A stretch of DNA of 64,000 nt from Candidatus Microgenomates bacterium (lineage in GTDB: Bacteria; Patescibacteriota; Microgenomatia; JACQLA01). Every line of letters starts with the position of its first letter. Position 1 is the first letter of the stretch. This document shows positions 20,546 to 58,919 of the stretch, piece by piece. The notes below the pieces were generated by a model. The model did no database searches. It was not told where the DNA came from and saw only the letters and a list, made by a program, of their open reading frames with translations. A program made the position numbers and the translations under genes. The stretch spans positions 68,339-132,338 of the forward strand of contig JACQLA010000005.1 in NCBI GenBank assembly GCA_016204255.1, written 5' to 3'.

Positions 20546-20582
20546 TTAGCACTTATATAACACGACTGCTAATTTTTGTCAA
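20546..20582 (-). promoter_or_regulatory. hrcA promoter (TTGACA-N17-TATATA) overlapped by a CIRCE operator
   Basis: The CIRCE element is ttagcactt-N9-gactgctaa at 20546-20572. On the minus strand the -35 box TTGACA is at 20582->20577 and the -10 box TATATA is at 20559->20554. Confidence 0.8.
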
Positions 20583-20817: not shown

Positions 20818-20920
20818 CTGTCAGTTTGCATAAAAAGTTAACACTTTTTTTAGCCTCAAATTTGCAAATTTTGCAAACTCCCGAGGCTAGAAATGTTTAC
20901 CATTTCGTGCAAACTGACAG
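20818..20920. repeat. nested three-tier hairpin element, copy B (paralog at 421-523)
   Basis: The outer 13-bp inverted repeat is ctgtcagtttgca (20818-20830) / tgcaaactgacag (20908-20920). The inner inverted repeat is tagcctc / gaggcta. The loop carries tttgcaaa twice. The element ends 4 nt from the murJ stop codon. Confidence 0.75.
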
Positions 20921-20924
20921 AAGT

Positions 20925-30553: not shown

Positions 30554-30579
30554 GACTGCGAAATTTGTTTGATATTATT

Positions 30580-31590
30580 ATGCTCACTCGAGAAACACTA
30601 GCGCCTGAAGAAAAAGAAAAATATAATAAGCTTGTTACTCATGTTCTCCAATCCTGGGAATGGGGAGAGTTTCGGGAAAAAACCGGTGTCAAAGTTATAA
30701 GACCGGGTCTTTTTGAAAAGAACCGTCTTATCACCGCTTATCAGCTAACGATCCATTCGATTCCCCATACTCCATACACTGTAGGCTACTTACCTAAAGG
30801 CCCTGTGCCCGATGAACAAATGCTTAGTGCTCTTGAGGATATTGGTATGGAAAATAACACCATTTTTTTTAAACTGGAACCAAATATTACTATTAACCAG
30901 AAACCGGTGATTAACAGCCGACTGACTTCTTCCCCACGACCTCTTTTTACTCGCTATACTTTTCAAATAGATCTGAGGAAAAGTGAAGAGGATCTCTTAA
31001 GACAAATGAAGGAAAAAACTCGCTATAATGTGCGCCTGGCCCAAAGAAATGGCGTTAGGGTCGCAGAAAATAATTCACCGGAGGCTTTTGAAGTTTATCT
31101 ACGACTGATGCAAGAGACTACGCAAAGACAAAATTTTTATGCCCATTCGGAAAAATACCACCGACTTATGTGGGAAACACTTCAAAAGGCCGGCATTGCC
31201 CACTTGCTGATCGCCGATTATAACAACGAGTCGTTGGTCGCCTGGATACTTTTTGTCTTTAATAAAGTCCTTTATTATCCCTATGGCGCTTCATCCACTG
31301 TTCATCGCGAAGTGATGGCCTCGAATTTAATGATGTGGGAGGCGATGAAATTCGGGCAAAAAATGGGTTGTGAGAAATTTGATCTTTGGGGCGCATTAGG
31401 TCCGGAACCTAATCCGAAAGATCCGTGGTATGGGTTTCACCGTTTTAAAGAAGGTTACGGTGGAGAGCTGGTGGAATTTGTCGGCAGCTACGATTTTGTT
31501 TTGAACTGGCCTCTTTATAAGCTTTACAATCTGGCTGATAATCTTCGCTGGGGACTCCTCCGACTTAAATCACGAATTAATCCCGGTTAA
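30580..31590 (+). CDS. FemAB-family peptidoglycan interpeptide-bridge peptidyltransferase
   Basis: FemX/MurM-like sequences are present (TRYNVRLAQRNGV, LYYPYGASS, MWEAMKF, KEGYGG). I prefer the ATG at 30580; the track's TTG at 30565 is possible. Confidence 0.83.
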   Translation: MLTRETLAPEEKEKYNKLVTHVLQSWEWGEFREKTGVKVIRPGLFEKNRLITAYQLTIHSIPHTPYTVGYLPKGPVPDEQMLSALEDIGMENNTIFFKLEPNITINQKPVINSRLTSSPRPLFTRYTFQIDLRKSEEDLLRQMKEKTRYNVRLAQRNGVRVAENNSPEAFEVYLRLMQETTQRQNFYAHSEKYHRLMWETLQKAGIAHLLIADYNNESLVAWILFVFNKVLYYPYGASSTVHREVMASNLMMWEAMKFGQKMGCEKFDLWGALGPEPNPKDPWYGFHRFKEGYGGELVEFVGSYDFVLNWPLYKLYNLADNLRWGLLRLKSRINPG

Positions 31591-36750: not shown

Positions 36751-38970
36751 ATGAAGCAGACCGTCCTTGCTGTTTTTTTTATTGCCATAATTGTCAGTCT
36801 TGTCGCGGTTTCTTTTACTATAAATCAGGTGGGTCAAGAAGAAAAACGGCTAAGTGTTGATCTCCAACATCGCTCAACGCTTCTTGCAGAAAGTCTTAGG
36901 GAAACCATCGAACCAAACTTTATAAATAAATCAGATAAGTATTTGCAGGATGTTGTAGAAAAGTTTGCGAATAAAGAAAGATTTGCCGGGCTGGCTGTCT
37001 ACGACAATAAAGGAATTGTCATTGCTATTTCTTCTAGTTTGCCCAAAGAAATTTCGGAGTCACAAAAAATTGCTTCTGATGTTATGGATGGCGACAAAGC
37101 CAATGGCGACTTTATCACCTTTGGTGATAAAAAAATGTACCTTTTTGCGATTCCTCTTCGTGATGAAAAAAGCGTAGTTGGGGCATTGATGATTGCACAA
37201 AATGCCGGGTATATCGACTCACGCTTGCAAGAAATTTGGAGAAACAATTTAATAAGATTATTTGCGCAGGTTTTTCTCCTATCAATTGCCGTGATTCTTT
37301 TTTTACAATGGGTTATTTATAAACCTATGCGGAATCTGGTGGAATCTTTAAGGCTGGCCCGATCAGGAGCAAGGTCCCTTGCTATTCCAATCCATCCATT
37401 TTTCCAACCACTGGCTAAAGAGATTTCAAACATTAATCGCAGTCTTATAGAAGCGCAGTTAAGCGCCAGCGAGGAAGCAAGAATGAATCTGGAAAAATTA
37501 GATTCTCCCTGGACCGAAGAAAGATTAAAGGAATTTGTAAAAGATATCTTGAAAGATAAATCAATCGTTGTGGTTTCAAATAGAGAACCATATATTCACA
37601 CTAAAGTCGGGAATAAAATTAATTATTATTTTCCGGCAAGCGGCATGGCAACCGCAATTGAACCAATGATGCAGGCCTGCGGAGGAACTTGGATTGCTCA
37701 CGGAGGCGGAGATGCCGACAGACTCACAGTTGATAAGAATAATGAACTCCAGGTCCCGCCTGATGAACCAAAATATACCCTAAGACGAGTCTGGCTAAGC
37801 GAGGAAGAAGAAAAGGGATATTATTATGGTTTTTCCAACGAAGGAATGTGGGCTCTGTGCCACATAGCACATACTCGGCCTATTTTTAGAAAAAACGACT
37901 GGGAGGAGTATAAAAAGGTGAATGGTAAATTTGCCAAAACTGTGCTTACCAAGATACGAGATCTTCAAAACCCCATCATCTTGATTCAAGACTTTCATTT
38001 CTCTCTTTTGCCGCGAATGATCAAAAATAGCAGGCCCGATGCAACAATAGGACTTTTTTGGCACACCCCTTGGGTCAGTGCAGAGTCCTTTAGTATCTGC
38101 CCCTGGAGAAAAGAAATTTTAGATGGTATGCTGGGCGCCGATTTAATCGGCTTTCATATTCAGCTTCATTGCAATAACTTTATTGAAACCGTTGGAAAGG
38201 AGCTTGAATCTTTGATTAACTTTGAACAATTTACTATCACTCGAGATGACCATATTTCATTAATAAAATCTTTCCCCATCAGCATTGCTTTTTCTAACGG
38301 GAAGTCACAACAGCAAAAAGAAAACTTCGATAAGGAAGGACTTTTAAAAAGCTTGGGGATAAAAACAAAATATATCGGAGTTGGGGTTGACCGCCTGGAT
38401 TACACAAAAGGAATTTTAGAGCGCATCAAAGCAATTGAAATTTTTCTTCAAAACTACCCCTCATATCGGGAGTATTTTACTTTCATTCAAATCGCCGCAC
38501 CAAGCCGGAGTAAAATAAAAAGGTATCGGGAGTTTGCTCAAGAAGTAGAGAAAGAGGTAGAACGTGTTAACTCACGCTTTAAAATAAAAAATTGGAAACC
38601 GATAATTCTTATAGAAAGACATCACAGCCATGAAGAAATTAATCAGTTTTATCAACTCGCTAATTTTTGCTTGGTGACGTCTATCCATGATGGGATGAAT
38701 TTAGTGGCCAAAGAATTTGTTGCCGCAAGAAACGATGAAATGGGTGTGCTTATTTTAAGCCAGTTTACTGGTGCTTCACGGGAACTAAAAGACGCCCTGA
38801 TTGTTAATCCATACAATGGAGAACAAACTGCTGAAGCAATATACACTGCTTTGTCTATGAGGGCTTCCGAACAAAAAAAGCGCATGAAAAAATTAAGGGG
38901 AACCGTTAGAAACTATAATGTCTACCGTTGGTCAGCTGAGTTTTTGAAAACTTTAGTAAATTTAAGCTAA
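36751..38970 (+). CDS. otsA: trehalose-6-phosphate synthase (GT20) with N-terminal TM-sensor-TM-HAMP-like module
   Basis: From about residue 270 the sequence is a canonical GT20 OtsA core (VVVSNREPY, WIAHGGG, GFSNEGMWALCH, IQDFHF, LFWHTPW, GVDRLDYTKG, DGMNLVAKEF, ILSQFTGA). Residues 1-270 contain two TM helices flanking a ~150-aa extracytoplasmic domain, then an amphipathic HAMP-like linker. Confidence 0.87.
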   Translation: MKQTVLAVFFIAIIVSLVAVSFTINQVGQEEKRLSVDLQHRSTLLAESLRETIEPNFINKSDKYLQDVVEKFANKERFAGLAVYDNKGIVIAISSSLPKEISESQKIASDVMDGDKANGDFITFGDKKMYLFAIPLRDEKSVVGALMIAQNAGYIDSRLQEIWRNNLIRLFAQVFLLSIAVILFLQWVIYKPMRNLVESLRLARSGARSLAIPIHPFFQPLAKEISNINRSLIEAQLSASEEARMNLEKLDSPWTEERLKEFVKDILKDKSIVVVSNREPYIHTKVGNKINYYFPASGMATAIEPMMQACGGTWIAHGGGDADRLTVDKNNELQVPPDEPKYTLRRVWLSEEEEKGYYYGFSNEGMWALCHIAHTRPIFRKNDWEEYKKVNGKFAKTVLTKIRDLQNPIILIQDFHFSLLPRMIKNSRPDATIGLFWHTPWVSAESFSICPWRKEILDGMLGADLIGFHIQLHCNNFIETVGKELESLINFEQFTITRDDHISLIKSFPISIAFSNGKSQQQKENFDKEGLLKSLGIKTKYIGVGVDRLDYTKGILERIKAIEIFLQNYPSYREYFTFIQIAAPSRSKIKRYREFAQEVEKEVERVNSRFKIKNWKPIILIERHHSHEEINQFYQLANFCLVTSIHDGMNLVAKEFVAARNDEMGVLILSQFTGASRELKDALIVNPYNGEQTAEAIYTALSMRASEQKKRMKKLRGTVRNYNVYRWSAEFLKTLVNLS

Positions 38971-42005: not shown

Positions 42006-43022
42006 TTAATCTTTCACTGTTTCCAGTTGGCTGATTTCCTCGTCGGCGACACTTTCGCCTAAAGATTGTGTGGAGGTGAGTTTTTGGCCAAGCATGGTAA
42101 AACCAGAGGCAACATTACTCATCTGATTATAGGCATTTTGGATATGACGTCCCAAAACCCCCAAATTTTCATCGACCTTATTGTAATCTTTTTGAATCGC
42201 GCGGATAGCAGCCAAAATTGCTCTTGCCCGGGACTCGATTTTTTGCCCCTCAAATGACATTAAAATTGCCTTCATATAGGCGTAAAAGGTCATCGGCGAA
42301 ACCGGCAAAACTCCTTTTTTCCCGGCGTAATCAAAAAGATCAGCATTGTTGATTATTTCGTAATAAATAGTTTCAGAGGGGATATACATTAGAGCATAAT
42401 CAATTGTTCCTTCTTCAGTTAAAATATATTTTTTAGAAATATCATCAACGTGTTTTTTGACATCACGGACAAATTCTTTTTCCACGATCTTTTTCTCGGC
42501 CTCGTCTTCAGCGGAGGCCATTTTGCGAAAATTTTCCATAGGGAATTTGGAGTCAACGGGGATAATGCCCGCGGCAGTTTTAATCGCTGCATCCACCATC
42601 GCTCCGGATTTAAAACTGTATTGTAAATGAAAAGACTGTTTAGGCAGCATTTGCCCCAAAAGCTCTTTTAAAACCTGCTCGCCGATGTTTCCCCGCAGTT
42701 TGGGGGAGCGCAAAAATTCCTGGATATCTTTCATTCCCCGGCCGATCTCCGACATCTCGCCGATATTTTTTTGGACCTGGGAAATAACCCGGGCGGCATT
42801 ATCGAGTCTTTCGTTTAAGGATTTTGTCGAAAGAGCAATGCTTTGGGAAAAAACTTTATTTTGATCGTCCATTCGCGCAGAGGTGGATTTAAGCCATTCT
42901 AAAAGTTCTTCGTTGGGACCATTTTTTTCACCAATTTGGGAGATTTTTTTATTTAACCAGAAGGCTAATCCCGCAAAGGTTAAAAGGACTAAAGCCAAAA
43001 GGAGATAGATTTCATTTCCCAT
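42006..43022 (-). CDS. rmuC: DNA recombination protein RmuC
   Basis: It has an N-terminal TM helix, a coiled coil, LRSPKLRGNIGEQVLKELL and a C-terminal nuclease-like domain (DAAIK...IPVDSKFP). Confidence 0.88.
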   Translation of the reverse strand: MGNEIYLLLALVLLTFAGLAFWLNKKISQIGEKNGPNEELLEWLKSTSARMDDQNKVFSQSIALSTKSLNERLDNAARVISQVQKNIGEMSEIGRGMKDIQEFLRSPKLRGNIGEQVLKELLGQMLPKQSFHLQYSFKSGAMVDAAIKTAAGIIPVDSKFPMENFRKMASAEDEAEKKIVEKEFVRDVKKHVDDISKKYILTEEGTIDYALMYIPSETIYYEIINNADLFDYAGKKGVLPVSPMTFYAYMKAILMSFEGQKIESRARAILAAIRAIQKDYNKVDENLGVLGRHIQNAYNQMSNVASGFTMLGQKLTSTQSLGESVADEEISQLETVKD

Positions 43023-43092
43023 AAATTTAAGGACTTTGGAAGTTTTTGTATTTTATCATTTTTTAACATAAAATTAAATTACAACTAATTCT

Positions 43093-43220
43093 GTCATTCC
43101 GAATGAAATGAGAAATCCCGCCTTGTTGCGAGGCAGGTAGGCGCGAAGTGCCTCAATTCACGCTTCGCTAGATTTCTCGCTGGAGTTTACACTGAGCGTG
43201 ACGAATGTGCTCGAAATGAC
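43093..43220. repeat. GTCATT-type palindromic element, copy c (128 bp)
   Basis: The pairs are gtcattccga (43093-) with tcgaaatgac (43211-43220), gagaaatc with gatttctc, and gcgaag with cttcgc. The element lies upstream of rmuC. Confidence 0.75.
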
Positions 43221-43243
43221 GATGGATTATTTACAATTAAACT

Positions 43244-43594
43244 ATGCGGCGGCGACAGAAACTGGGTCCTAAAATTTTTTTCGCTCTTCTTTTTTGGTTA
43301 GGCTGGGTTTATCTTGTTTTAAGAATTCCTCCTGATAAATTTTACCTTTTAGTTTTGTTTTTCTTTCTTTTTTTTATAGCTTCGGGGTTAACTTTTTCCT
43401 TGATTTTAAAAAACCGGCTTTATGGTTTTTTGTTTGCTGCAATAATCACTGTCTTTTTGCTTTTACGGATTTTAAAAATGGCCAATATTTTAAATCTTGT
43501 CCTACTTTCATCTTTGGGTTTAACCTTGATACTCTTTTTTTGGTCACCCAGGCACAAAAGAAAGTTACCGCCACAAAATTTTCCCCAGCCTTGA
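43244..43594 (+). CDS. hypothetical polytopic membrane protein (116 aa)
   Basis: ORF from the track with three or four hydrophobic helices. Confidence 0.5.
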   Translation: MRRRQKLGPKIFFALLFWLGWVYLVLRIPPDKFYLLVLFFFLFFIASGLTFSLILKNRLYGFLFAAIITVFLLLRILKMANILNLVLLSSLGLTLILFFWSPRHKRKLPPQNFPQP

Positions 43595-43599
43595 GTTTG

Positions 43600-43608
43600 T
43601 GCTAGAAT
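43600..43608 (+). promoter_or_regulatory. extended -10 box (TGcTAGAAT) 9 nt upstream of the metG ATG
   Basis: The box tgctagaat is at 43600-43608 and the ATG is at 43618. No SD sequence lies between them. Confidence 0.45.
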
Positions 43609-43617
43609 AGGCTGCAT

Positions 43618-45036
43618 ATGACTAATAAATTCTATTTGACCACCGCCATTCCGTATGTGAATGCCAAACCCCATATCGGGCATGCCCTGGAATTTATCCA
43701 GGCCGACTGCGTAGCACGCTATCATAAACTTTTAGGCGAGGATACGCTGCTGCTTTCCGGCGCCGATGAAAACAGTTTAAAAAATGTCCAGGCCGCCGAA
43801 GATCGGGGAGTGCCGGTTAAACAGCTTTGTGACGAAAATTCCAAGGCTTTTTCCGATTTATTGGAAAAATTAAACGTTTCCGTCAACATCTTTCAACGAG
43901 CCAGCGAAAAAAAACATTTTGAAAGCAGTCAGAAACTTTGGCAAAGGTGCCAAAAAAATGGGGATATTTATAAAAAATCTTACGAGGGTCTTTATTGTAT
44001 TGGCTGTGAAGCATTTTACACCGAAGATGAATTGGAAAATGGCCTTTGCCCCGAACATAAAACCAGACCGGAAAAAATCAGCGAAGAAAATTATTTTTTT
44101 AGACTCTCCAAATATCAAAAGCAGATCGAAGAGTTGATTGAAGGCGATGAGTTAAAACTTATTCCCGCAACCAGAAAAAACGAGGCTCTCGGTTTTATTC
44201 GGGGAGGACTTGAAGATTTTAGCATTTCCCGCTCGCAAAAAAGAGCCCGCGGCTGGGGCGTTCCGGTCCCAAACGATTCTAACCAGATTATGTATGTTTG
44301 GTTTGACGCTTTAAATATTTATCAAAGCGGTGTCGGTTTTGGCTGGGATGAAAAAAGTTATCAACAATGGTGGCCGGCAGATTTACATATTATCGGCAAA
44401 GGAATTTTAAGGTTCCATGCGGTTTATTGGCCAGCAATTTTACTTTCCGCCGGACTTCCTTTACCCAAATCGATTTTTGTCCACGGTTATATAACTGCCG
44501 GCGGACAAAAAATTTCAAAATCTTTAGGAAATGTTATTGACCCGATTGAAATGATTGAAAAGTATGGTGTTGATTCATTGCGTTATTACCTTCTACGCGA
44601 GATACCAGCCTATAGTGATGGCGATTTTTCAGAAAGAAGATTTAAAGAAATTTATAACGCTGATCTGGCTAACGGATTAGGCAATTTAGTCGCCCGAACT
44701 GTAAAACTTTGCGAAAAGATCGATACTGAATTCAAACCTCTAAAGGCGGCTCTTTCAGAAGATTATAAAAATGATTTAGGTTCTTTTTGCTTCGATGAAG
44801 CTTTGGCCACAATCTGGGACGAAATAAGAAGCCTAGATCGGTATTTAGAAAAAGAAAAACCCTGGCTGATTAGTGATATTTCAAAGCTCTTTCCGATTCT
44901 TGAATTTACTGTGGGACGAATTCTACAAATTGCCTATGAACTTCAGCCATTTCTTCCTGAAACAGCAGAAAAAATTCAAAAACAATTTGCCGGGCCACAA
45001 ATTAAATCCGGACCGCCGTTATTTCCTCGATTGTAA
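43618..45036 (+). CDS. metG: methionyl-tRNA synthetase (short form, no C-terminal tRNA-binding domain)
   Basis: The HIGH-type motif (PYVNAKPHIGH), the KMSKS-type motif (KISKSLGN) and the zinc knuckle CIGCEAF...CPEH are present. Confidence 0.95.
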   Translation: MTNKFYLTTAIPYVNAKPHIGHALEFIQADCVARYHKLLGEDTLLLSGADENSLKNVQAAEDRGVPVKQLCDENSKAFSDLLEKLNVSVNIFQRASEKKHFESSQKLWQRCQKNGDIYKKSYEGLYCIGCEAFYTEDELENGLCPEHKTRPEKISEENYFFRLSKYQKQIEELIEGDELKLIPATRKNEALGFIRGGLEDFSISRSQKRARGWGVPVPNDSNQIMYVWFDALNIYQSGVGFGWDEKSYQQWWPADLHIIGKGILRFHAVYWPAILLSAGLPLPKSIFVHGYITAGGQKISKSLGNVIDPIEMIEKYGVDSLRYYLLREIPAYSDGDFSERRFKEIYNADLANGLGNLVARTVKLCEKIDTEFKPLKAALSEDYKNDLGSFCFDEALATIWDEIRSLDRYLEKEKPWLISDISKLFPILEFTVGRILQIAYELQPFLPETAEKIQKQFAGPQIKSGPPLFPRL

Positions 45037-45066
45037 GCATTAAATCATAAATAATAGATAATCTTT

Positions 45067-45870
45067 ATGCTAATTGATACTCACGCTCACCTAAATTTCC
45101 AGGCCTTTACCGCTGACTTCCCCGAGGTTTTAAAGCGGGCCAAGGAAGAAGGCGTGGAAAAAATAATCAACGTTGGCGCCAGTTTGGATTCAAGCCAAAA
45201 AGCCGTTGAAATATCTCAAAAATATGAAGGACTTTATGCTTCGGTCGGAATTCACCCCCATCACGCCGAAGAAACACTAAAGAACTTCGGTACTAAGGAA
45301 CTTAAGAATAAATTAGACAAATTAGCCCAAAATCCTAAAGTTGTAGCAATCGGCGAAGGCGGCTTAGATTACCACATGTATAAAAACGGCGGTATCGCCA
45401 ACCCGGAAAAACAAAAAAAACTTTTTCTGGTTCACCTTGATTTAGCACAAAAATTAAATTTGCCGCTCATCTTCCATTGTCGAGACGCCCATGATGATAT
45501 GCTAAAAACTCTTAAACTATACACTATACACTCTACCCCATATGCCATCCAAGGAGTTTTTCATTGTTTTTCCGGTGATCAGGATTTTTTGGAAAGTGTT
45601 TTAGAGATGGGTTTTTATGTCGGCTTTGACGGCAATATTACTTACAAGAGCGCCCAATGCTTGCGCGATTTGGTCTCTTCTACCCCCATTGACCGTCTGC
45701 TTCTAGAGACAGACTGTCCCTATCTGCCGCCTGAACCCTTCCGTGGTTTGCGCAACGAACCTAAAAATGTTAAGATTGTGGCTGGGGCAGTGGCTGAAAT
45801 TAAAGGACTGCCCTCTAAAGTTGTGGCAGAAAAAACCAGCGAAAACGCCCATAGACTCTTTAAGATATGA
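45067..45870 (+). CDS. tatD: TatD-family metal-dependent hydrolase
   Basis: The motifs MLIDTHAHLN, GIHPH, GEGGLDY, HCRDA, HCFSG and ETDCPYL are present. The metG-tatD synteny is common. Confidence 0.92.
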   Translation: MLIDTHAHLNFQAFTADFPEVLKRAKEEGVEKIINVGASLDSSQKAVEISQKYEGLYASVGIHPHHAEETLKNFGTKELKNKLDKLAQNPKVVAIGEGGLDYHMYKNGGIANPEKQKKLFLVHLDLAQKLNLPLIFHCRDAHDDMLKTLKLYTIHSTPYAIQGVFHCFSGDQDFLESVLEMGFYVGFDGNITYKSAQCLRDLVSSTPIDRLLLETDCPYLPPEPFRGLRNEPKNVKIVAGAVAEIKGLPSKVVAEKTSENAHRLFKI

Positions 45871-47360
45871 AATTTTTTGATCGTCTTTTTAAACGCTATC
45901 CGATTAAAACCATGCGTGCTCTGGAAATTATGCCGGGCCTACTTTCCTGGTCGTTGATCCTATTCCCCTTTTGGGGCTCGCTTCTGGTTCCTATTGCAAT
46001 TGCCTACTTTCTGATTTTCTACAACATATTTTGGTTTTATAAATCTTTCTATATGGCTGCAACGGCCATTTTGGCTCACCGAAAGATTGAAGAATCACAA
46101 AAAATTAACTGGCTGGAAAAAGCGAACAAGTTGGCGAATTTTGAAAAAGTCAGACATCTTATAATCATCCCTAACTATAAGGAGAAGGTAGAAAAATTAA
46201 GAGACACCATTCAATCGCTGGTTGATCAAAACTATCCTAAAGAAAATATGGTTATTGTTTTGGCTATGGAAATACGGGAAGCTGGAGCTCAGGAAAAAGT
46301 TAAAGTTTTAGAGCATGAGTTCGGAAAAAAATTTGGTCATTTTTATGCAACTTTTCACCCGGCTATTGCCGGAGAAGTGGCCGGAAAATCCTCAAATGAA
46401 GCCTGGGCAGGCATTTGGGCGAAGAAAAAACTTGTCGATGAGTTAGGATACGATTTGGATTACATAACCGTCTCCTCAGTAGATGCCGATTCAATATTCC
46501 ATCCACAATATTTTGCTTATTTGTCTTTTGAATTCTTAAAAGCGGGTGAAAAACGCTATCTTCATTTTTGGCAATCGGCTAATGTTTTACACAATAATAT
46601 CTGGCGCGTCCCCGCCCCAATCAGAACTTCCTCAATTATTTCTTCCGTTTGGCGAACCAGTGTCCTATTGAGACACGATCGTCTAATTCCCAACTCTACC
46701 TACTCCCTAAGTCTTAAAATGCTTGATAAAGTTGGTTATTGGGATATTGATGTTATTCCTGAGGACTACCGAATTTTCTTCAAGGCTTTTTACAAACTCG
46801 AGGGAAAAGTCGAAACCAGACCCATTTTTTTAACCACTTCTATGGACGCAGCCGAATCAACAACATACTGGAAAAGCTTGCTTAATAAATATGAACAAGA
46901 AAAACGCTGGGCCTGGGGCGTTTCTGATGACCCTCTTTTTATTAAATGGTGGCTAACCGTTCCCAACGTATCCTTTTGGGATAAAACTGTTCATCTGATT
47001 AAAATTTTGGAGGATCATATTCTTTGGCCGGTTAACTGGTTTGCAATCACCATTGGCGCCAATATAATTCCTTTCTTAAATCCCCAATTCAGTCGAACGG
47101 TTCTTGGTTACAATTTACCAAGATTTTCCTCCTTTATCTTAACGACCTGTGTTTTGGCCCTGGCCGTAATTTTAGTTATCGACTTGCGTCAAAGACCCAA
47201 GTCGCAACAGTCCCCAATCCAACGAAAATTACTCACTGTTTTGGAATTTATTTTAATGCCCTTCACCTCTTTTTTTCTTTGGGCCCTGCCTGGAATTATT
47301 GCTCATACACAACTCATGCTTGGGAAAAGATTGGAATATAAGGTTACTGAAAAAGTTTAG
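45867..47360 (+). CDS. membrane-embedded family-2 glycosyltransferase (processive-synthase-like)
   Basis: N- and C-terminal TM helices flank a GT-A domain (IIIPNYKEK, VDADSIF and the QxxRW-like EQEKRWAWG). Confidence 0.75.
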   Translation: MKFFDRLFKRYPIKTMRALEIMPGLLSWSLILFPFWGSLLVPIAIAYFLIFYNIFWFYKSFYMAATAILAHRKIEESQKINWLEKANKLANFEKVRHLIIIPNYKEKVEKLRDTIQSLVDQNYPKENMVIVLAMEIREAGAQEKVKVLEHEFGKKFGHFYATFHPAIAGEVAGKSSNEAWAGIWAKKKLVDELGYDLDYITVSSVDADSIFHPQYFAYLSFEFLKAGEKRYLHFWQSANVLHNNIWRVPAPIRTSSIISSVWRTSVLLRHDRLIPNSTYSLSLKMLDKVGYWDIDVIPEDYRIFFKAFYKLEGKVETRPIFLTTSMDAAESTTYWKSLLNKYEQEKRWAWGVSDDPLFIKWWLTVPNVSFWDKTVHLIKILEDHILWPVNWFAITIGANIIPFLNPQFSRTVLGYNLPRFSSFILTTCVLALAVILVIDLRQRPKSQQSPIQRKLLTVLEFILMPFTSFFLWALPGIIAHTQLMLGKRLEYKVTEKV

Positions 47361-47371
47361 AAGCTACTTCC

Positions 47372-48865
47372 ATGTTAGAAAAAATAGAAAAACATCTAGA
47401 TTTAGGTTTTCTCTTAGCTTTATCTTTTTTTCTCAGACTCCCCTCTCTTTTTGAACCCTACCATTATGGAGATGAAGGAATTTATGAAGTTCTAGGGCAG
47501 GCAGTTTCTCAAGGAGGCTTACTCTATCGCGACGCTTGGGATAATAAACCACCGTTTCTTTACTTAATTTACGCCGTTTTTAGCGGCGATCTCTTTTGGG
47601 TCAAGTTTCTCTCTTTAGTTTTCTGTCTTTTAACCATTACTGTCTTTTATCTTTTGGCAAGGAAAATATTTACATCTGGCCGACTAGCCTTACTCTCAAC
47701 CCTAATCTTTACACTACTTTTCTCTCTCCCCTTTCTTGAGGGTAATATTGCCAATGCAGAAAACTTTATGTTACTACCGATCATTTTTGCCTTTTATCTT
47801 GTATTTCGCTATTTTCCCAAAAGTAACAGATTTCATTTTTTAAGCGCTGGTTTTTTACTCGGCTTAGCTTTTCTTCTTAAAATCGTTGCCATTTTTGACT
47901 TTGCCGCGCTTGGCGTTTTTCTTCTGATTGGACTTTGGGATAAAATATTCCCTCCTTTAAAGTCAAATAAAATCTTTAAAAAACTTTTAAATTTCAAGCC
48001 AGAAATGGTCTTTCCTTTACTTTTTCTTTTCGGAGGTTTTATCCTACCAATTATCGCAACCTTCATGTTTTTCTTCTTTCAAGGATCTTTTAAAGATTTT
48101 CTCACCGCCGCTTTTTCCCAAAATGCAAATTATGTCGCCGCGGGCAACCAGTTATTTATCCCTCAGGGCTGGTTGCTTTTTAAGCTTTTGTTGCTTGCAA
48201 TTTTTTGTCTCTTTCTTCTGCTTAAACGCGGATCTTTTACAAAGGGACAGCTTTTAATCTTTCTTTGGTTTGGTTTTTCTGTATTCAACGCTCTTTTTGC
48301 CGAAAGACCGTGGATTCACTATCTTCTGGTTTTAATCCCGGCGCTTTCTTTACTTTTACTCTTTCCTTTCCAAGAAAAAAAATGGAGGAGATTTACTTTA
48401 GCTATTATTATTTTTACTTTTTATCTTATTGGGTCTCGCTTTTGGCTCTATGGAAAAACATTTACCTACTACGAAAATTTCTTTTCCTTGATAGCCGGAA
48501 AAAAATCGGTTGAAGACTATTATTCTTTTTGGGGGAATCACGTTAATCGCGATTATCAGGTGGCGCAATTTTTAATGGCTAAAAATGGAGGCTCTGATCC
48601 GATTTTTATTTGGGGAGATAATGCTCAAATTTATGCCTTAGCCAAAAAGCCAGTAGTCGGTCGTTACTCGGTCGCCTATCATATTACTTTCTATCCTCAG
48701 GCCTACCAAGAAACAATAGAAGCCTTGAGTCAAAAACAACCCAGATATATTATTATTCTTTTACCACAAACGGCTCCTTTAAAAGATATCGGGGTCTTCA
48801 TAAGCCAGCACTATCGTCTTCTTTTCCAAACTGAAGGTTTTATTGTTTATGAAAAACAGCTTTAA
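47372..48865 (+). CDS. GT-C fold glycosyltransferase (ArnT/PMT, GT39/83-like)
   Basis: It has about 12 TM helices. The first extracytoplasmic loop carries YHYGDEGIY, a DE-type motif. The C-terminus is a soluble domain. Confidence 0.72.
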   Translation: MLEKIEKHLDLGFLLALSFFLRLPSLFEPYHYGDEGIYEVLGQAVSQGGLLYRDAWDNKPPFLYLIYAVFSGDLFWVKFLSLVFCLLTITVFYLLARKIFTSGRLALLSTLIFTLLFSLPFLEGNIANAENFMLLPIIFAFYLVFRYFPKSNRFHFLSAGFLLGLAFLLKIVAIFDFAALGVFLLIGLWDKIFPPLKSNKIFKKLLNFKPEMVFPLLFLFGGFILPIIATFMFFFFQGSFKDFLTAAFSQNANYVAAGNQLFIPQGWLLFKLLLLAIFCLFLLLKRGSFTKGQLLIFLWFGFSVFNALFAERPWIHYLLVLIPALSLLLLFPFQEKKWRRFTLAIIIFTFYLIGSRFWLYGKTFTYYENFFSLIAGKKSVEDYYSFWGNHVNRDYQVAQFLMAKNGGSDPIFIWGDNAQIYALAKKPVVGRYSVAYHITFYPQAYQETIEALSQKQPRYIIILLPQTAPLKDIGVFISQHYRLLFQTEGFIVYEKQL

Positions 48866-49202
48866 AAAAATTCTTAATAACCCTCCCTATCTTTGGGGAA
48901 TCGTTTTTACGGTGGTTGTTATTCTTTTCTCTGTTTTTCTTTTAGTCTTAAATTGGCAGAATCTTCCTCCACAAGTTCCTATTTTTTATAATCGCCTTTG
49001 GGGGGAAGACCAACTGGGAAAACGGGAAGAACTTTTACTGCTTCCATCAATCGCTTTTGTATTTTTCATAATCAATATCCTTCTGGCAACAAAAATTTAT
49101 TTAAAAGAGGGTCTAATTTCTTTAATTTTGATTTGGACTGCTTCCTTCTTAGCATTTGCCGGGATCTTCACTTTACTGCAAATTATAAGGATTGTTGGTT
49201 AA
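48849..49202 (+). CDS. small polytopic membrane protein
   Basis: ORF from the track. I prefer the ATG at 48849. It sits between the GT-C and GT4 genes. Confidence 0.5.
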   Translation: MKNSFKKILNNPPYLWGIVFTVVVILFSVFLLVLNWQNLPPQVPIFYNRLWGEDQLGKREELLLLPSIAFVFFIINILLATKIYLKEGLISLILIWTASFLAFAGIFTLLQIIRIVG

Positions 49203-49206
49203 ATTT

Positions 49207-50316
49207 ATGGATGTTTTTAATCCTTTTTTTCAAAATTTTCTCCTTTTTCCCTTCTTAACAGCTTTTATTTTTTCCTTTATTTCTACCCCTTTTGTCATTC
49301 GTCTGGCCCGTTATTTTGAACTGGTTGACAATCCTAAGGTAAGAAAGCACCCCGCGCACGTCCATAGTCACACCATTCCTCGAGCCGGAGGATTAGCGAT
49401 TTACTTCGGAATTATTATTAGCGTCATTCTATTTTTTCCTTTCTCGAAACAGTTATTGGGAATTGTGGGTGGGATGACCGCTCTTATTTTTATTGGCCTG
49501 CTAGATGATAAATTTGACCTTAATCCTTATTTCCGCTTAGTAACTAACTGTTTTGCGGCGCTTTTAGTCATCGGATCAGGAATCAGTATCGCCTATATCA
49601 CCAACCCCTTTGGAGGAATCATCCACTTCGATACCCTGAGGATAAAATTTAACTTTTTCGGACCGCACTCCATTATAGTATGGGCAGATCTTTTGGCCCT
49701 TATTTGGATTGTCTGGTGTATGAACATGGTCAACTGGTCAAAGGGTGTAGATGGGCAAATGCCGGGCTTTACCGCCATAAGCGCTTTCATTTTAGGAATT
49801 CTGGCCTTTCGTTTTGCCATCGGCGGTGATTCATCTCAATGGTTTGTGGTTGTCTTCAGCTTTATCGCTGCCGGCGCTTTTTCCGGTTTTATCCCTTTTA
49901 ATTTTTATCCGCAGAGGGTAATGCCTGGCTATGGAGGCGGGAGTTTAGCCGGCTTTATTTTAGCAATACTGGCTATTTTATCCGGCGCAAAACTTGCCAC
50001 AGCCATTTTGGTTTTGGGTGTTCCTATGGTTGACGCTTGCTACACCATCGCCCGAAGAATGTTTAGCAAGCGTTCTCCTGTTTGGGCTGATCGCGGACAT
50101 CTCCATCATAAACTTATGGATCTTGGTTGGGGTAAACGCCGGATTGCTTTATTTTATTGGCTGCTCTCTGCTATACTAGGGGCGGTTTCTTTGAATCTCA
50201 ATAGCCGGGGTAAATTTTTTGCCATCGTCCTTGTTGGAGTGCTTTTAGGAGGTGTTCTTTTATGGTTAAGCTTTTGGGCTACCTTTTCAAGGCAAGCCGA
50301 CCGAAACAATGGTTAA
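49207..50316 (+). CDS. polyprenyl-phosphate N-acetylhexosamine-1-phosphate transferase (GT4, MraY/WecA family)
   Basis: The motifs PRAGGLAIY, GLLDDKFDLNP and NMVNWSKGVDGQ (a variant of NxxNxxDGxDG) are present, plus a C-terminal HLHHKL. I prefer the ATG at 49207. Confidence 0.83.
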   Translation: MDVFNPFFQNFLLFPFLTAFIFSFISTPFVIRLARYFELVDNPKVRKHPAHVHSHTIPRAGGLAIYFGIIISVILFFPFSKQLLGIVGGMTALIFIGLLDDKFDLNPYFRLVTNCFAALLVIGSGISIAYITNPFGGIIHFDTLRIKFNFFGPHSIIVWADLLALIWIVWCMNMVNWSKGVDGQMPGFTAISAFILGILAFRFAIGGDSSQWFVVVFSFIAAGAFSGFIPFNFYPQRVMPGYGGGSLAGFILAILAILSGAKLATAILVLGVPMVDACYTIARRMFSKRSPVWADRGHLHHKLMDLGWGKRRIALFYWLLSAILGAVSLNLNSRGKFFAIVLVGVLLGGVLLWLSFWATFSRQADRNNG

Positions 50317-51206
50317 AAAACCTTAGCCTTTTTGCGGCAATAGTTTTCACCGGGCAGCTTTTTACTCCTGAATTGCTTAAAATCAGCCTTTTTGCGTTTG
50401 TGATTTTTTGTCTCCTTTCTTCCAGCTCCTATTTAATTAACGACGTAATTGATGCCAATCGTGATCGTTTGCATCCATTTAAAAAATTACGCCCCATTGC
50501 CTCGGGAAAGCTCTCCCGCAATTTCGCCCTAGGGGTGGCCTTAGCGGAAGTTATTTTCGCTCTTAATTTTTCTTTACTGATAAGCCAAGGGTTCTTTTTA
50601 ATTGCTCTAACCTTCTGGATGCTCCATATGTCCTACTCCTTTTTTCTCAAGAAGGCGACAGTAATTGACATTTTAGCAATAGCAACCTGCTATATCCTGC
50701 GAGTTTATGCTGGCGAGATAGCCACCGGTTTTCACCTCTCTGTCTGGCTAATGCTTTGCATTATTTCTCTTTCTCTCTTTTTAGCCATCGGCAAAAGACG
50801 TTCTGAACTCACTCTTTTGACTGCCCACAATGAATCAATTTCTGCTAAAGTTCGCGGGACTCTTTTACATTACTCCGAAAAACTGCTGGACGTATACACT
50901 GCCATTTTTGCTAACGCCATTTGGATAACTTATGCCTTCTTTACCTTTTTGGAGCGTCCACCAACTTACGGCTGGCTGTGGCAAAGTCAATGGGGACAGT
51001 TTTTGTATTCTTCCTACGCCGACCGCAAATGGCTTATGGCCACTATTCCTTTAGTAATCTATGGTATTATGCGATACCTGCAGCTTATTTATGAAAAATC
51101 AGAGGGTGAATCCCCGGAGGAAGTTTTGCTCTCCGACAAACCTCTTTTGTTTACGGTGATTTTTTGGAGCTTTGCGGTCGTAATTATCATTTATGGACTT
51201 GGTTAA
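50262..51206 (+). CDS. UbiA-family polyprenyl-phosphate phosphoribosyltransferase (DPPR synthase-like)
   Basis: The motifs RPKQWLKN and NDVIDANRDRLHPFKKLRPIASG, plus a second Asp-rich region, match the decaprenyl-phosphate phosphoribosyltransferase subfamily. It overlaps the upstream gene by 55 nt. Confidence 0.82.
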   Translation: MVKLLGYLFKASRPKQWLKNLSLFAAIVFTGQLFTPELLKISLFAFVIFCLLSSSSYLINDVIDANRDRLHPFKKLRPIASGKLSRNFALGVALAEVIFALNFSLLISQGFFLIALTFWMLHMSYSFFLKKATVIDILAIATCYILRVYAGEIATGFHLSVWLMLCIISLSLFLAIGKRRSELTLLTAHNESISAKVRGTLLHYSEKLLDVYTAIFANAIWITYAFFTFLERPPTYGWLWQSQWGQFLYSSYADRKWLMATIPLVIYGIMRYLQLIYEKSEGESPEEVLLSDKPLLFTVIFWSFAVVIIIYGLG

Positions 51207-52030
51207 AGTCCATTAATCTTTTGTCCGTATTGGGAGGAAATCCAGCCCTCTTTTTCCTCGCCATCCTCATTGTACTGGATTTTAAACCAATCTTCCTGCT
51301 CTTCAAGCAAAGGATATTCTTCATTGGGCTTAATTTTGGCCGCTTCGCTGGCGGCAACCGATGGCTCGGTTCTGACCCGCAACCATCCAGTAGGAGTTTT
51401 AAGAATTTTAACCTTTAAAACAGCACTCTCGGAGGCTATTTTGGGGACTTCCTGAACAGTTCCCGCAAGCTTTACATTGATCAAAAGTTTATATCCGGCC
51501 GCTGTCCTAATAGTTAGAGTTCTTTCTTGATAACCGGGAAAAGAAAAACGTAACTCATGGTCGCCACTTTCATAACCGCCCAAAACCTTGGGCGCTGTCC
51601 CCTGATCTTCACCATCAATCGAAAAGCTCGCGCCATCCGGATCTGATAAAACCATTATTTCTCCTTTTTTTTCATTAGTTTTTTCTAAAGTTAGGATCTC
51701 CCCTACCGATTCCTTTTCTGTTGGCCCAAAAAGATAATTTACCGAAGTTAAAACCCGAGGATAAAGTTTAACTTTCCGCTCAACAATAGAGCCGTTATTC
51801 TCTTGTACGAGGCGGAGTGTGTACTCACCCGGCGCAAGCTGATCATTTTCTAAAGGAGACTTGCCCAAATCTTTTCCATCAAGGAAAACCCGGGCAGGAG
51901 GAATGGTCGTTACTTGTAGTGCGGCAACAACGTTTTTTTTGGGTAAGGCGGCGATTATATTCCCTCCCCAAAAAATCGCTCCGCCAAGAAGGACAAAGCC
52001 AATAAATAGTAAAAAATAACCTTTTCTCAT
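51203..52030 (-). CDS. PEGA-domain protein with C-terminal SH3b domain, membrane anchored
   Basis: It has two PEGA-like repeats (LAPGEYTLRL and GDHELRFSFPGYQERT) and a C-terminal SH3_3-like segment (GWLRVRTEPS...WFKIQY...GWISSQY). Confidence 0.72.
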   Translation of the reverse strand: MRKGYFLLFIGFVLLGGAIFWGGNIIAALPKKNVVAALQVTTIPPARVFLDGKDLGKSPLENDQLAPGEYTLRLVQENNGSIVERKVKLYPRVLTSVNYLFGPTEKESVGEILTLEKTNEKKGEIMVLSDPDGASFSIDGEDQGTAPKVLGGYESGDHELRFSFPGYQERTLTIRTAAGYKLLINVKLAGTVQEVPKIASESAVLKVKILKTPTGWLRVRTEPSVAASEAAKIKPNEEYPLLEEQEDWFKIQYNEDGEEKEGWISSQYGQKINGL

Positions 52031-52145
52031 GTTGTATCTATACCTAATTCCACCAACAACAAAATTCAGACCTATTAATAATACCCATAATTATACACTC
52101 CCTCTGAAAGAGGTATAGTAATTTCTTCCTGTAAGCGTAAGGAAT

Positions 52146-52214
52146 TTGACTTTTGAACGGATTTTTGCTAGAATCAGGTTTCTCCTATTTACAGTAGGAG
52201 TTTTTTCTTTTTTT
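52146..52214 (+). promoter_or_regulatory. promoter (TTGACT-N17-TGcTAGAAT) followed by an early hairpin + T-run in the M23 peptidase leader
   Basis: The -35 box is at 52146-52151 and the -10 box at 52169-52174. A hairpin, ctccta (52182-87) / taggag (52195-200), is followed by ttttttcttttttt (52201-52214). Confidence 0.55.
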
Positions 52215-52277
52215 CGCCCCATCAGGCGAAAACCTCTAGCTCGTTTCCTGTCCTTAAAAAAACAAGCAGAGATAGTT

Positions 52278-52853
52278 ATGGTTAAAAAAATAAAGATTTC
52301 CTATCGCTTTTTAAGCCGGAAATTTTTGGACCAAAAACGAATCAAAAAAATAGTTGGGATTAATCTAGTAGCCATCGGGCTACTCTTTGGTATTTTGCCT
52401 TCGGGCGTGGAAGCTTTTTATAACCGCCAGATTATTAGCGATTTATCCACCATCCAATTTACGGTTCAAGAGCTAACAACGCTGAAAGCCTCCCAATTTC
52501 CACTTAAAACTTACGATTATATCTCACAATATTTTTCTTACTATCACCCGGGAATTGACTTAAGTGCACCTTTTAAAACTCCCATTTACCCCATTGAAAA
52601 GGGAGAAGTTAAGGCAATTTACAGTCTTTTTTATGACTATGGCCGATATATCGTTATTGACCACGGCGATGGTTTGGAGTCCTTATACGCGCATCTTTCC
52701 TCTTTTAATGTTAACGTGGGTGATAAGGTAACTAAAGAAAGCGTAATTGGCTTTGTTGGGGCCACCGGACGAGCAACAGGTAGTCATCTGCACTTGGAAA
52801 TTTGGATAAACGGCAAGGCTTTAAATCCGCTTGAGGTTTTAGGAGAAAAATAA
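52278..52853 (+). CDS. M23-family (LytM-type) peptidoglycan endopeptidase
   Basis: The motifs HPGIDL and GSHLHLEI are present, with an N-terminal TM anchor. I prefer the ATG at 52278 because the track's TTG at 52146 coincides with the -35 box. Confidence 0.86.
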   Translation: MVKKIKISYRFLSRKFLDQKRIKKIVGINLVAIGLLFGILPSGVEAFYNRQIISDLSTIQFTVQELTTLKASQFPLKTYDYISQYFSYYHPGIDLSAPFKTPIYPIEKGEVKAIYSLFYDYGRYIVIDHGDGLESLYAHLSSFNVNVGDKVTKESVIGFVGATGRATGSHLHLEIWINGKALNPLEVLGEK

Positions 52854-57509: not shown

Positions 57510-58919
57510 ATGCAAGCGAAATTATGGCGAAAAAAAATTAAAATTTGGAGAAAAATCTTTTTCTTCACTCTGGGCATCACCTTCGGCGGTTTTTTCACAC
57601 TAACTACCTTTATTATCGTCTGGGAACGTCAGTTTGACGGCCGGGTCTATTCCGGAGTTAGAATTTCGGGAAAGGATTTTGGAGGCAAAACCCCGAAAGA
57701 GGTGGAAGATTTTTTCAAGCAAAAAAACAGCGAGCTTTCTTTTCAATTCACCTTCAGTCACCAAAGCACTATCTCTACTTTAAGCGCTCAGGATTTGGAT
57801 TGGGGATATAACGAAAAATTAATCGCCGCTCAAGCTTTTTATTTTGGCCGTTCAGGCCATTTATTTTCTGATCTTTATTTTAAAACTTTAGCCTTAAGAA
57901 ACGGTTTTGATATTAATCCTGCCTATTATTACAACGATGTAAGGCTCACCTCGCTGCTATCAAAACTTGGTGAAAAAATTGATATCCCCGCCCAGGAAGG
58001 GCTTTTTCAATACAGTAGCGGCAAAGTTACCGCTTTCCGTCCCTCCCGGGCCGGACAAATCCTAGACATCGAGGAAGCCAAGAAAAATTTCGCTGATAGT
58101 TTCAAAATTATTAACACCGGCACTTCATCGTCGCTGTTTGTTTTAAAACTTCCGGTAAAAAAAATTGAACCAAAAGTAACTACCGAAAATGCCAATAATC
58201 TCGGCATTAAGGAACTTGTGGCCAGCGGGTCATCGCGTTTTGTCGGCTCAATCCCTAACCGAATCCACAATATTCAACTGGCTGCTTCCCGCTTAAACGG
58301 AATTTTAGTGGCTCCGGGGGAAGAATTCTCTTTCAATAATACTTTGGGGGATGTTTCAAAATTTACCGGCTATAAAGAAGCCTATGTTATTCAAAATGGT
58401 CGAACAGTCTTAGGCGATGGCGGTGGAGTTTGCCAGGTTTCGACTACTCTTTTTCGCGCGCTTTTAAATGCCGGCTTGCCGATTACTGAACGTCACCCTC
58501 ATTCCTATCGAGTAGGCTACTATGAGCAGGGGTCGCCAGTGGGCTTGGATGCCTCGGTTTATGCTCCCAACTGGGATTTAAAATTTAGAAATGACACTGG
58601 CTCTTATCTTCTTATCCAGTCAGTATTTAATCTGCGGGATGCCTCGCTGGTCTTTGAACTTTATGGTCAAAATGACGGCCGAACGGCCATAATCACCACA
58701 CCACAAATTACAAATCAAAAACCACCGCCTGAAGATTTATACCAGGATGGTCCAACCTTACCCAAAGGCGAGCTAAAACAGGTCGACTGGAAAGCCTGGG
58801 GGGCAGATGTTTCTTTTTCCCGGGTGGTTAAAAAGGGCGAGGAGACATTAATTTCTGAAAAATTCAACTCCCGTTATCAACCTTGGCAATCTGTCTTTTT
58901 GCGCGGAACCAAAGAATGA
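57510..58919 (+). CDS. VanW-family protein
   Basis: It has an N-terminal TM helix and the VanW core GGGVCQVSTTLFRALLNAGLPITERHPHSY. Confidence 0.87.
   Translation: MQAKLWRKKIKIWRKIFFFTLGITFGGFFTLTTFIIVWERQFDGRVYSGVRISGKDFGGKTPKEVEDFFKQKNSELSFQFTFSHQSTISTLSAQDLDWGYNEKLIAAQAFYFGRSGHLFSDLYFKTLALRNGFDINPAYYYNDVRLTSLLSKLGEKIDIPAQEGLFQYSSGKVTAFRPSRAGQILDIEEAKKNFADSFKIINTGTSSSLFVLKLPVKKIEPKVTTENANNLGIKELVASGSSRFVGSIPNRIHNIQLAASRLNGILVAPGEEFSFNNTLGDVSKFTGYKEAYVIQNGRTVLGDGGGVCQVSTTLFRALLNAGLPITERHPHSYRVGYYEQGSPVGLDASVYAPNWDLKFRNDTGSYLLIQSVFNLRDASLVFELYGQNDGRTAIITTPQITNQKPPPEDLYQDGPTLPKGELKQVDWKAWGADVSFSRVVKKGEETLISEKFNSRYQPWQSVFLRGTKE

Follow-up and report, generated by a model that had tools for sequence, protein, structure and literature searches.

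A lineage-wide Microgenomates gene cluster predicted to assemble a polyprenyl-phosphate-dependent envelope glycan

What kind of surface polymer might be built by the five clustered genes found at 45867-51206 of a 64,000-nucleotide stretch of DNA from the uncultured, ultra-small Candidatus Microgenomates bacterium (contig JACQLA010000005.1 of assembly GCA_016204255.1, positions 68,339 to 132,338; the whole stretch is hereafter called the window)? To our knowledge, the chemical composition of the envelope in the candidate phyla radiation (CPR, Patescibacteria) is essentially unknown. An earlier sequence-only reading of the window had described five co-directional genes separated by short gaps or overlaps; the open reading frames (ORFs) exist exactly as described, on the same strand, and all encode membrane proteins:

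45867-47360, + strand: membrane-integrated glycosyltransferase of family 2 (GT2), predicted processive-synthase type, 497 amino acids (Pfam Glyco_trans_2_3, 29 bits)
47372-48865, + strand: putative GT-C glycosyltransferase, PMT_2/ArnT-like, 497 amino acids (Pfam PMT_2, 4.3e-10, and PMT, 1.7e-9, ~40 bits each)
48843-49202, + strand: small membrane protein with three predicted transmembrane (TM) helices, 119 amino acids (LPPxxPxFYxxxWG loop conserved)
49192-50316, + strand: member of the polyprenyl-phosphate N-acetylhexosamine-1-phosphate transferase family (PNPT; MraY/WecA superfamily), 374 amino acids (Pfam Glycos_transf_4, PF00953, E = 5.7e-22)
50262-51206, + strand: UbiA-superfamily enzyme, predicted decaprenyl-phosphoryl-phosphoribose (DPPR) synthase/PPPRS type, 314 amino acids (NCBIfam NF008978, 209.2 bits)

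Because each ORF of the cluster has hundreds to thousands of homologs, the five are real genes rather than chance ORFs. With a probability of roughly 0.55, we consider that they form a core, lineage-wide Microgenomates operon for a polyprenyl-phosphate-dependent envelope glycan, combining a synthase-type backbone polymerase with extracytoplasmic pentofuranosylation. The name "GT4", used previously for the PNPT gene, is the Pfam name Glycos_transf_4 and not the CAZy family GT4, and the GlcNAc-1-phosphate specificity attached to it was an assumption and is putative. In the NCBI annotation the PNPT starts at M6 (49207), giving 369 amino acids.

The enzymes of the cluster

The UbiA enzyme marginally passes the NCBIfam model NF008978 (209.2 bits; cutoff, 207), and scores 202.9 bits against NF008977 (cutoff, 234), 149.5 bits against NF008976 (cutoff, 474), and 154 bits against PRK08238, a 482-position UbiA-family profile, whereas the models of heme-O, menaquinone, ubiquinone, and chlorophyll prenyltransferases give 56 bits or less. 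Its sole relative in the PDB is Mycobacterium tuberculosis Rv3806c (8J8J; E = 2.8e-32), and the protein is named "decaprenyl-phosphate phosphoribosyltransferase" by NCBI. The NDVIDANRDRLHPFKKLRPIASG motif occupies UbiA residues 60-82 and is aligned to N73-G95 of Rv3806c. In the latter enzyme, Mg2+ is contacted by N73 and D77, the ribose by N73 and Q135 (Q135 at O3), the 5'-phosphate by K28, Y70, and Y157, and the pyrophosphate by R22, K87, R90, Y138, K143, and K208; these phosphoribose sites are not common to ordinary UbiA prenyltransferases (PMC10994848). Ten of the 12 substrate contacts are identical in the UbiA enzyme, in which R13, K19, Y57, N60, D64, K74, R77, Y125, K130, and Y144 correspond to R22, K28, Y70, N73, D77, K87, R90, Y138, K143, and Y157, respectively. 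Nine of these, among them the Mg2+ ligands N60 and D64 of the NDxxD motif, are kept without exception in 121/121 homologs, the tenth (Y144) being Tyr or Phe, as also occurs in some mycobacteria. At the two remaining positions, the equivalent of Q135 is H122, which varies among Q, H, E, S, and A in the clade, and that of K208 is G199, not conserved but adjoining an invariant R198. The scores with the DPPR-synthase models, the conserved contacts for phosphoribosyl pyrophosphate (PRPP), and Rv3806c as the sole PDB relative together strongly support the prediction that UbiA is a PRPP-dependent polyprenyl-phosphate 5-phosphoribosyltransferase of the DPPR-synthase type. The signature noted by the sequence-only reading is thus borne out, with 209 and 203 bits against at most 56 bits for the menaquinone, heme-O, and related types.

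No DprE1/DprE2-like epimerase was found among the window ORFs of at least 200 amino acids or within 10 kb past each window end (~84 kb in total), in agreement with the sequence-only reading. Likewise, FAD_binding_4/ALO and SDR genes are absent from the window and its flanks and, in the relatives whose context is annotated with Pfam, from the 10 kb around the cluster, and none of 65 clusters anchored by TatD contains an epimerase- or phosphatase-like insertion. Since no epimerase is encoded nearby, the lipid-linked sugar is likely ribofuranose rather than arabinofuranose, and ribose or phosphoribose, as proposed before, is the better guess.

At 58-76% identity, the GT2 is better conserved than any other protein of the cluster; its GT-A domain and interface helices lie between two N-terminal and four C-terminal TM helices. 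D206xD208, E299-D300, and Q344xxR347-W348, belonging to the D, DxD, ED, and QxxRW motifs, are invariant across 40 homologs. The profile of the GT2 family had no match in the PDB at the sequence level, and matches were given by fold comparison alone: in a Foldseek search, the AlphaFold2 (AF2) model (mean predicted local distance difference test score, pLDDT, 80.9) superposed best over its full length (~480 columns) on Chlorella virus hyaluronan synthase (HAS; TM-score, 0.53-0.56; E ~1e-9), followed by BcsA (E ~1e-8) and the vertebrate HAS of Xenopus. Based on the invariant motifs and the fold shared with HAS and BcsA, the GT2 is a membrane-integrated, hyaluronan/cellulose-synthase-like synthase of the processive type, whose processivity and translocation are predicted. 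The alternative that GT2, GT-C, and the small protein constitute a classical GtrB-GtrC-GtrA trio was rejected, as the GT2 has the QxxRW motif and a HAS-like fold unlike GtrB or dolichyl-phosphate-mannose synthase, and the partner of the small protein is the PNPT.

The GT-C protein has ~11 TM helices followed by a C-terminal α/β domain, and its first loop contains the invariant residues E28, P29, Y32, G33, D34, E35, G36, and D57-N58-K59-P60-P61. Its family profile found no match in the PDB by sequence, and the AF2 model (mean pLDDT, 91.8) retrieved STT3, AglB, PglB, DPY19, and PMT with Foldseek E-values of 1e-7 to 1e-4 (oligosaccharyltransferases (OSTs), 1e-7; PMT, 2.5e-5), the best local structural fit being that to Pmt2 (root-mean-squared deviation, 4.4 Å; 20% identity). 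In contrast, EmbB, EmbA, and AftD appeared only at E = 0.1-1. No OST motif of the WWDxG type is evident in the C-terminal domain. From the Pfam PMT/PMT_2 matches, the DE motif of the first loop, and the GT-C fold, we infer a transferase of the lipid-phosphate-sugar-using class that would be PMT/OST-like rather than Emb/Aft-like, its activity being predicted.

The PNPT resembles the MraY/WecA/GPT family (PF00953) in its domain and ten-TM-type architecture, and retains D105-D106 (DD), D187, the second Asp of the NxxNxxDGxDG motif, and H303/H305/H306 (HxHH), of which D105-D106 and the three histidines are invariant in the family. It differs from MraY, WecA, and GPT at two other acidic positions. 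The first Asp of "TDGLDG", which by spacing probably corresponds to BsMraY D174, is K184 here (Lys, Asn, or Ser in the clade). In the alignment of the PNPT family profile with MraY structures, "PGYGG" is placed opposite "MGDxGS", and AaMraY D265 (BsMraY D231) corresponds to Y247; in AaMraY, D265 is a catalytic residue adjoining the bound Mg2+ (PMC5039524). An exhaustive search yielded 494 PNPT representatives at E ≤ 1e-30, and 123 full-length proteins among the best 150 were analyzed. At position 247, the nearest 63 carry no acidic residue, whereas the 60 more distant ones carry Asp or Glu, most of them also keeping the canonical Asp at position 184. Within the clade of the present enzyme, position 247 is Tyr or Phe, and both acidic losses are clade-specific, co-occurring with adjacency or fusion to the small protein. 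A housekeeping MraY was rejected as an identity of the PNPT, which scores 57 bits against a cutoff of 192; WecA, as the label "WecA-like" had implied, is its best NCBIfam match, though its 90 bits fall far short of the cutoff of 326 and the two canonical acidic residues are lost. The PNPT would presumably make a polyprenyl-diphosphate-sugar primer.

Of the best 150 representatives, 23 (471-523 amino acids) carry the domain of the small protein as an N-terminal fusion to the PNPT, and all 23 have Tyr or Phe at position 247. These fusions indicate that the small protein is a partner or subunit of the PNPT and not the missing flippase. Three TM helices are predicted in 64 of 71 members of its family; its only Pfam match, DUF1648, is sub-threshold, and it has no similarity to GtrA, SMR, or MATE proteins and no PDB match by sequence profile. 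Both the absence of similarity and the fusions led us to reject it as a flippase of the GtrA/SMR type. A PNPT clade that has no counterpart of the Mg2+-adjacent Asp of MraY and is tied to a small partner bears on the mechanism of a major antibiotic-target family.

Conservation and layout of the cluster

In a scan with one genome per species, at least 583 genomes were found to contain a relative, and the 80 best of these all belong to the Microgenomates type (Gottesman-, Levy-, Davies-, Curtiss-, Collier-, Beckwith-, and Woesebacteria). Synteny of the cluster extends over more than 80 Microgenomates genomes, and the order MetRS-TatD-GT2-GT-C-small protein-PNPT-UbiA, followed by a convergent gene with PEGA and SH3 domains, is kept even where UbiA is only 48-60% identical. 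Presence was counted over 86 non-duplicate loci, each feature being scored over the loci where it was testable. The PNPT gene lies directly upstream of UbiA in 81/82 loci, with overlapping ORFs in 77/81, and the GT2, the small protein, and the GT-C are present in 61/66, 63/66, and 52/66 loci, respectively. Accordingly, the invariant core is GT2, small protein, PNPT, and UbiA, to which GT-C is a frequent but not obligatory addition. The co-conservation that had been proposed as a check on the cluster is therefore found, with the same gene order across lineages; the GT-C belongs to the cluster of the window, but is not an invariant member.

Among 65 loci that include the TatD anchor, 33 have the same architecture as the window (34 if locus L079 is counted, in which the small protein has diverged too far for labeling). 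A divergent 440-residue PMT_2 GT-C, often accompanied by an extra 236-residue GT2 of PF00535, characterizes 15 loci; 11 have the Daviesbacteria-type architecture with a 600-residue GT2 variant and without GT-C; and in five the GT-C is missing from the cluster or relocated upstream of TatD. The extra GT2 was observed in Gottesmanbacteria-type loci (L001, L003, L005, L010, and L018; ~5000-5720 in locus coordinates) as a soluble protein of 231-239 residues encoded between TatD and the large GT2; its NCBIfam matches are all weak and far under the cutoffs, and neither the window nor the Levybacteria-type loci have this gene. In Daviesbacteria-type loci, a single GT2 variant of 589-608 residues replaces GT2 and GT-C (6841-8658 in L046, 6782-8551 in L059, and 6760-8565 in L087, with another 10 loci of the same kind), and carries an N-terminal extension of ~100 residues with three TM helices and a faint, sub-threshold match (E = 0.004) to GtrA, a family of proposed polyprenyl-phosphate-sugar flippases. 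The Microgenomates-type cluster, with its synteny, also occurs in many third-party-annotation metagenome-assembled genomes titled "uncultured Gammaproteobacteria" or "Pseudomonadales", and in one titled "Spirochaetia" (L011, L012, L018, L019, L023, and many others), these titles being evident taxonomic mislabels.

The genes of the window are tightly packed. MetRS and TatD lie upstream of GT2 on the same strand; TatD and GT2 overlap by 4 nucleotides (nt), GT2 and GT-C are separated by 11 nt, and overlaps of 23, 11, and 55 nt follow between GT-C and the small protein, the small protein and PNPT, and PNPT and UbiA, respectively. In the last of these (50262-50316), the 3' end of PNPT and the 5' end of UbiA share 55 nt in two different frames. 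The overlap measures 55 nt in 26 loci and 20 nt in 16 loci, and the C-terminal tail of the PNPT (…DxDNG) and the N-terminus of UbiA (MVKLL…RPRQW) are both conserved across it. The conservation of both ends marks the overlap as a dual-coding stretch and suggests translational coupling. UbiA ends in a convergent overlap of 4 nt with the next gene:

51203-52030, - strand: membrane-anchored protein with PEGA and SH3_3 domains, 275 amino acids (Pfam PEGA, 4.3e-20; SH3_3, 3.1e-9)

In 75/81 loci this gene directly follows UbiA in convergent orientation, and its product is a conserved neighbor of the cluster with a putative functional link. The stop codons of the two genes coincide with a hairpin at 51193-51213, which has a perfect 8-bp stem (ATGGACTT-GGTTA-AAGTCCAT) and may act as a bidirectional terminator. 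Apart from this hairpin, promoter and terminator scans of 42900-52300 gave hits at about chance level and were uninformative.

Proposed pathway and alternatives

Among known systems, the cluster comes closest to three-component pentofuranose glycosylation, as represented by ORF15-ORF14-ORF12 of Citrobacter youngae O1/O2 (Kelly et al., PNAS 2024, PMC11127046). In both cases a gene for a PRPP-using, UbiA-type PPPRS is located beside a GT-C gene, the lack of an epimerase points to ribofuranose as the donor sugar, and the transfer would take place outside the cytoplasm from a lipid-phosphate-linked pentofuranose. Systems consisting of PPPRS, flippase, and GT-C without epimerase add α-ribofuranose, as in the epimerase-less Citrobacter O1, and the arabinofuranose (Araf) systems of the published survey carry DprE1/E2 homologs inside the candidate modification system (PMC11127046). 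The present cluster is distinguished by having neither a fused HAD phosphoribose phosphatase nor a MATE or SMR flippase, by a GT-C belonging to Pfam PMT_2/PMT, by the additional HAS-like GT2 and divergent PNPT with its small partner, and by its occurrence as a lineage-wide core operon among housekeeping genes and not in a variable O-antigen locus. No CPR example is present among the published three-component systems or in the supplement of the same paper (PMC11127046), and our literature search found no account of this UbiA enzyme or cluster in CPR/Patescibacteria. The paradigm of pentofuranose glycosylation would thereby come to cover a monoderm-like lineage that branches deeply, and a housekeeping setting that is not variable.

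The backbone part of the proposed pathway has its parallel in synthase-dependent assembly. WbbF of Salmonella O:54 both polymerizes and translocates an O antigen linked to undecaprenyl phosphate (PMC2841628). The GT2 resembles WbbF-type enzymes, HAS, and cellulose synthases in its D, DxD, ED, and QxxRW motifs and its HAS/BcsA-like fold, and is encoded with a PNPT that could supply a polyprenyl-linked primer; it differs in lacking a sequence-level match to any solved synthase, and such systems are not known to be coupled to a lipid-pentose donor derived from PRPP. The mycobacterial decaprenyl-phosphoryl-arabinose/arabinogalactan pathway (Rv3806c, Rv3807c, DprE1/E2, WecA, GlfT2, Emb/Aft, and Lcp1), to which the cluster had been likened, shares a homologous UbiA enzyme, and a PNPT-family enzyme, a processive GT2, a GT-C, and an LCP (LytR-CpsA-Psr) protein are all encoded here too. 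This likeness is loose only: within the window and cluster no PAP2, DprE1/E2, Glf/GlfT2, or Emb/Aft-type GT-C was found, the GT-C being PMT/OST-like; the GT2 is a membrane-channel synthase, unlike the soluble GlfT2 type; the PNPT falls far under the WecA cutoff and has a remodeled active site; and the host is a CPR bacterium, not an actinobacterium.

The following pathway is proposed. On the cytoplasmic face, UbiA would move 5-phosphoribose from PRPP onto polyprenyl phosphate, yielding polyprenyl-phosphate-ribofuranose-5-phosphate, a step strongly supported by the residues described above. Some phosphatase would then remove the 5-phosphate and some flippase would turn the lipid-linked sugar across the membrane, the donor staying ribofuranose because no epimerase is present. 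Outside the membrane, the PMT/ArnT-like GT-C would glycosylate an acceptor from the lipid-phosphate-sugar, as its fold, motifs, and precedent suggest. The HAS/cellulose-synthase-like GT2 may polymerize and extrude a β-linked backbone from a nucleotide sugar, as judged from motifs and fold. Finally, the PNPT with its small three-TM partner may make a polyprenyl-diphosphate-sugar primer or anchor, in parallel with synthase-dependent O-antigen assembly, and such a primer would make the product transferable to peptidoglycan by an LCP-type enzyme. An LCP gene is present, as had been noted:

26037-27116, - strand: LCP (LytR-CpsA-Psr) protein (Pfam LytR_cpsA_psr, E = 1.1e-32)

It is situated 19 kb from the cluster and is unlinked to it; its product might be a candidate ligase attaching a polyprenyl-diphosphate-linked glycan to peptidoglycan.

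A core operon that is syntenic across a class-level lineage predicts a PRPP-derived, lipid-linked ribofuranose donor, and thereby offers a concrete chemical hypothesis for the CPR envelope that is testable by heterologous expression, without culturing the organism. A bolder and tentative version, which we regard as rather unlikely in its entirety, sees the product as a lineage-defining secondary wall polymer containing ribofuranose, with a HAS-like backbone, a primer made by a two-subunit PNPT with a remodeled Mg2+ site, and decoration by the GT-C from polyprenyl-phosphate-(phospho)ribose, a hybrid route not described before. Because no phosphatase was found, the 5-phosphate may even stay on the polymer as an anionic group resembling that of teichoic acids. 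For CPR bacteria, whose presumed way of life is attachment to host cells, a ribofuranose wall polymer, if real, could be a main surface determinant of that attachment.

Several observations weigh against the operon and pathway as proposed. About one-fifth of the lineages have no GT-C in the cluster, which makes the link of UbiA with GT-C weaker than that with PNPT. Housekeeping synteny is widespread in Microgenomates (MetRS-TatD upstream and GroES/EL downstream of the cluster). Against such a background in reduced genomes, functional coupling is overestimated if judged by co-location alone, above all for GT-C; the genes could in part have stayed together through inherited order and not through coupling. 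The cluster contains no phosphatase (HAD-PRP or PAP2), the 314-residue UbiA protein having no extra domain, and no recognized polyprenyl-phosphate-sugar flippase (MATE, SMR, or GtrA). With two canonical acidic residues missing, the activity, the donor, and even the catalytic competence of the PNPT are uncertain. Inspection for an epimerase covered ~84 kb of the genome. The sole HAD gene seen in it lies ~4 kb past the far window end, ~50 kb from the cluster. TatD, which overlaps the start of GT2, was considered as the missing phosphatase and rejected, being a full-length YchF/TatD nuclease (268 bits) in a MetRS-TatD pairing conserved upstream.

TfpW, which adds arabinofuranose to the pilin of Pseudomonas aeruginosa, is the model for an alternative in which the GT-C places ribofuranose or a PNPT-primed glycan on pilins, an S-layer, or other surface proteins. 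The nearest relatives of the GT-C in structure and sequence (STT3, PglB, AglB, DPY19, and PMT) are indeed protein glycosyltransferases, PilN and PilO are encoded in the window, and the gene for the conserved PEGA/SH3 surface protein adjoins UbiA; a DPPR-synthase ortholog also feeds pilin O-arabinosylation in P. aeruginosa (cited in PMC11127046). Protein glycosylation, however, leaves the HAS-like GT2 of the cluster unexplained and would depend on its least constant member, a GT-C in which the WWDxG-type motif is not evident; moreover, no pilin gene adjoins the cluster. We therefore judge it unlikely.

Ranked below it, and unlikely as well, are independent functions held together by gene order, with the GT2 making a separate exopolysaccharide, the PNPT and small protein serving another glycan (e.g., that of the Wzx/Wzy_C genes 19 kb away), and UbiA supplying a donor for GT-Cs anywhere. 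The strong synteny of unrelated housekeeping genes (MetRS, TatD, GroES/EL, and M23) around the cluster, the dispensable or relocated GT-C of some lineages, and the Wzx-like and Wzy_C genes elsewhere on the contig fit this alternative. The start/stop codon overlaps running through all five genes, the PNPT/UbiA overlap conserved in 77/81 loci, the persistence of the block as its flanks vary, and the fact that all the enzymes are membrane proteins, three of them acting on polyprenyl-phosphate substrates, argue instead for the common operon. A true arabinogalactan-like Araf pathway, in which a phosphatase and epimerases of the DprE1/DprE2 type encoded elsewhere in the genome would turn the lipid-linked ribose into arabinose for polymerization by the GT-C, is improbable. 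In its favor are the homology of UbiA to Rv3806c with retention of the substrate contacts, the presence of PNPT, GT-C, and LCP on one contig, and the inspected span of only ~84 kb. Against it, no FAD_binding_4/ALO or SDR gene was found over the window, flanks, and 10 kb around the clusters of annotated relatives, matches of the GT-C to Emb/AftD stay at E ≥ 0.1, genes of the Glf/GlfT2 type were not encountered, and published Araf systems hold their DprE1/E2 homologs within the system (PMC11127046).

Other genes of the contig

At 16016-21829 of locus L093, ~6-11 kb past the 3' end of the window, genes were observed for a Wzx-like Polysacc_synt flippase, a Wzy_C protein (O-antigen ligase/polymerase-like), and a 916-residue DUF4012 protein. 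They could form a second lipid-linked glycan module able to use a primer made by the PNPT. This Wzx-like gene outside the window and the gene for MurJ (20925-22577, - strand) are both unlinked to the cluster. Besides MurJ, the window encodes a FemAB-family protein (30565-31590, + strand) and a VanW/PG_binding_4 protein (57510-58919, + strand), from which it follows that the organism makes peptidoglycan with interpeptide bridges; this gene set is consistent with a monoderm-type wall able to carry a secondary polymer.

Rfam and tRNA scans detected no RNA genes in the window. A GT20 protein (trehalose-6-phosphate-synthase-like) of 739 residues is encoded at 36751-38970 (+ strand) with an N-terminal extension of ~270 residues without a Pfam match, and is followed by a 293-residue ORF, also without a Pfam match. 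At 14024-14797 (- strand), a secreted protein with a NAGPA (phosphodiester glycosidase) domain is encoded next to a small secreted protein (14911-15354, + strand), in which "HGAYWHNNFGQRMSNGCVNLP" presumably resembles the active site of a YkuD-type L,D-transpeptidase; both proteins are candidates for wall remodeling.

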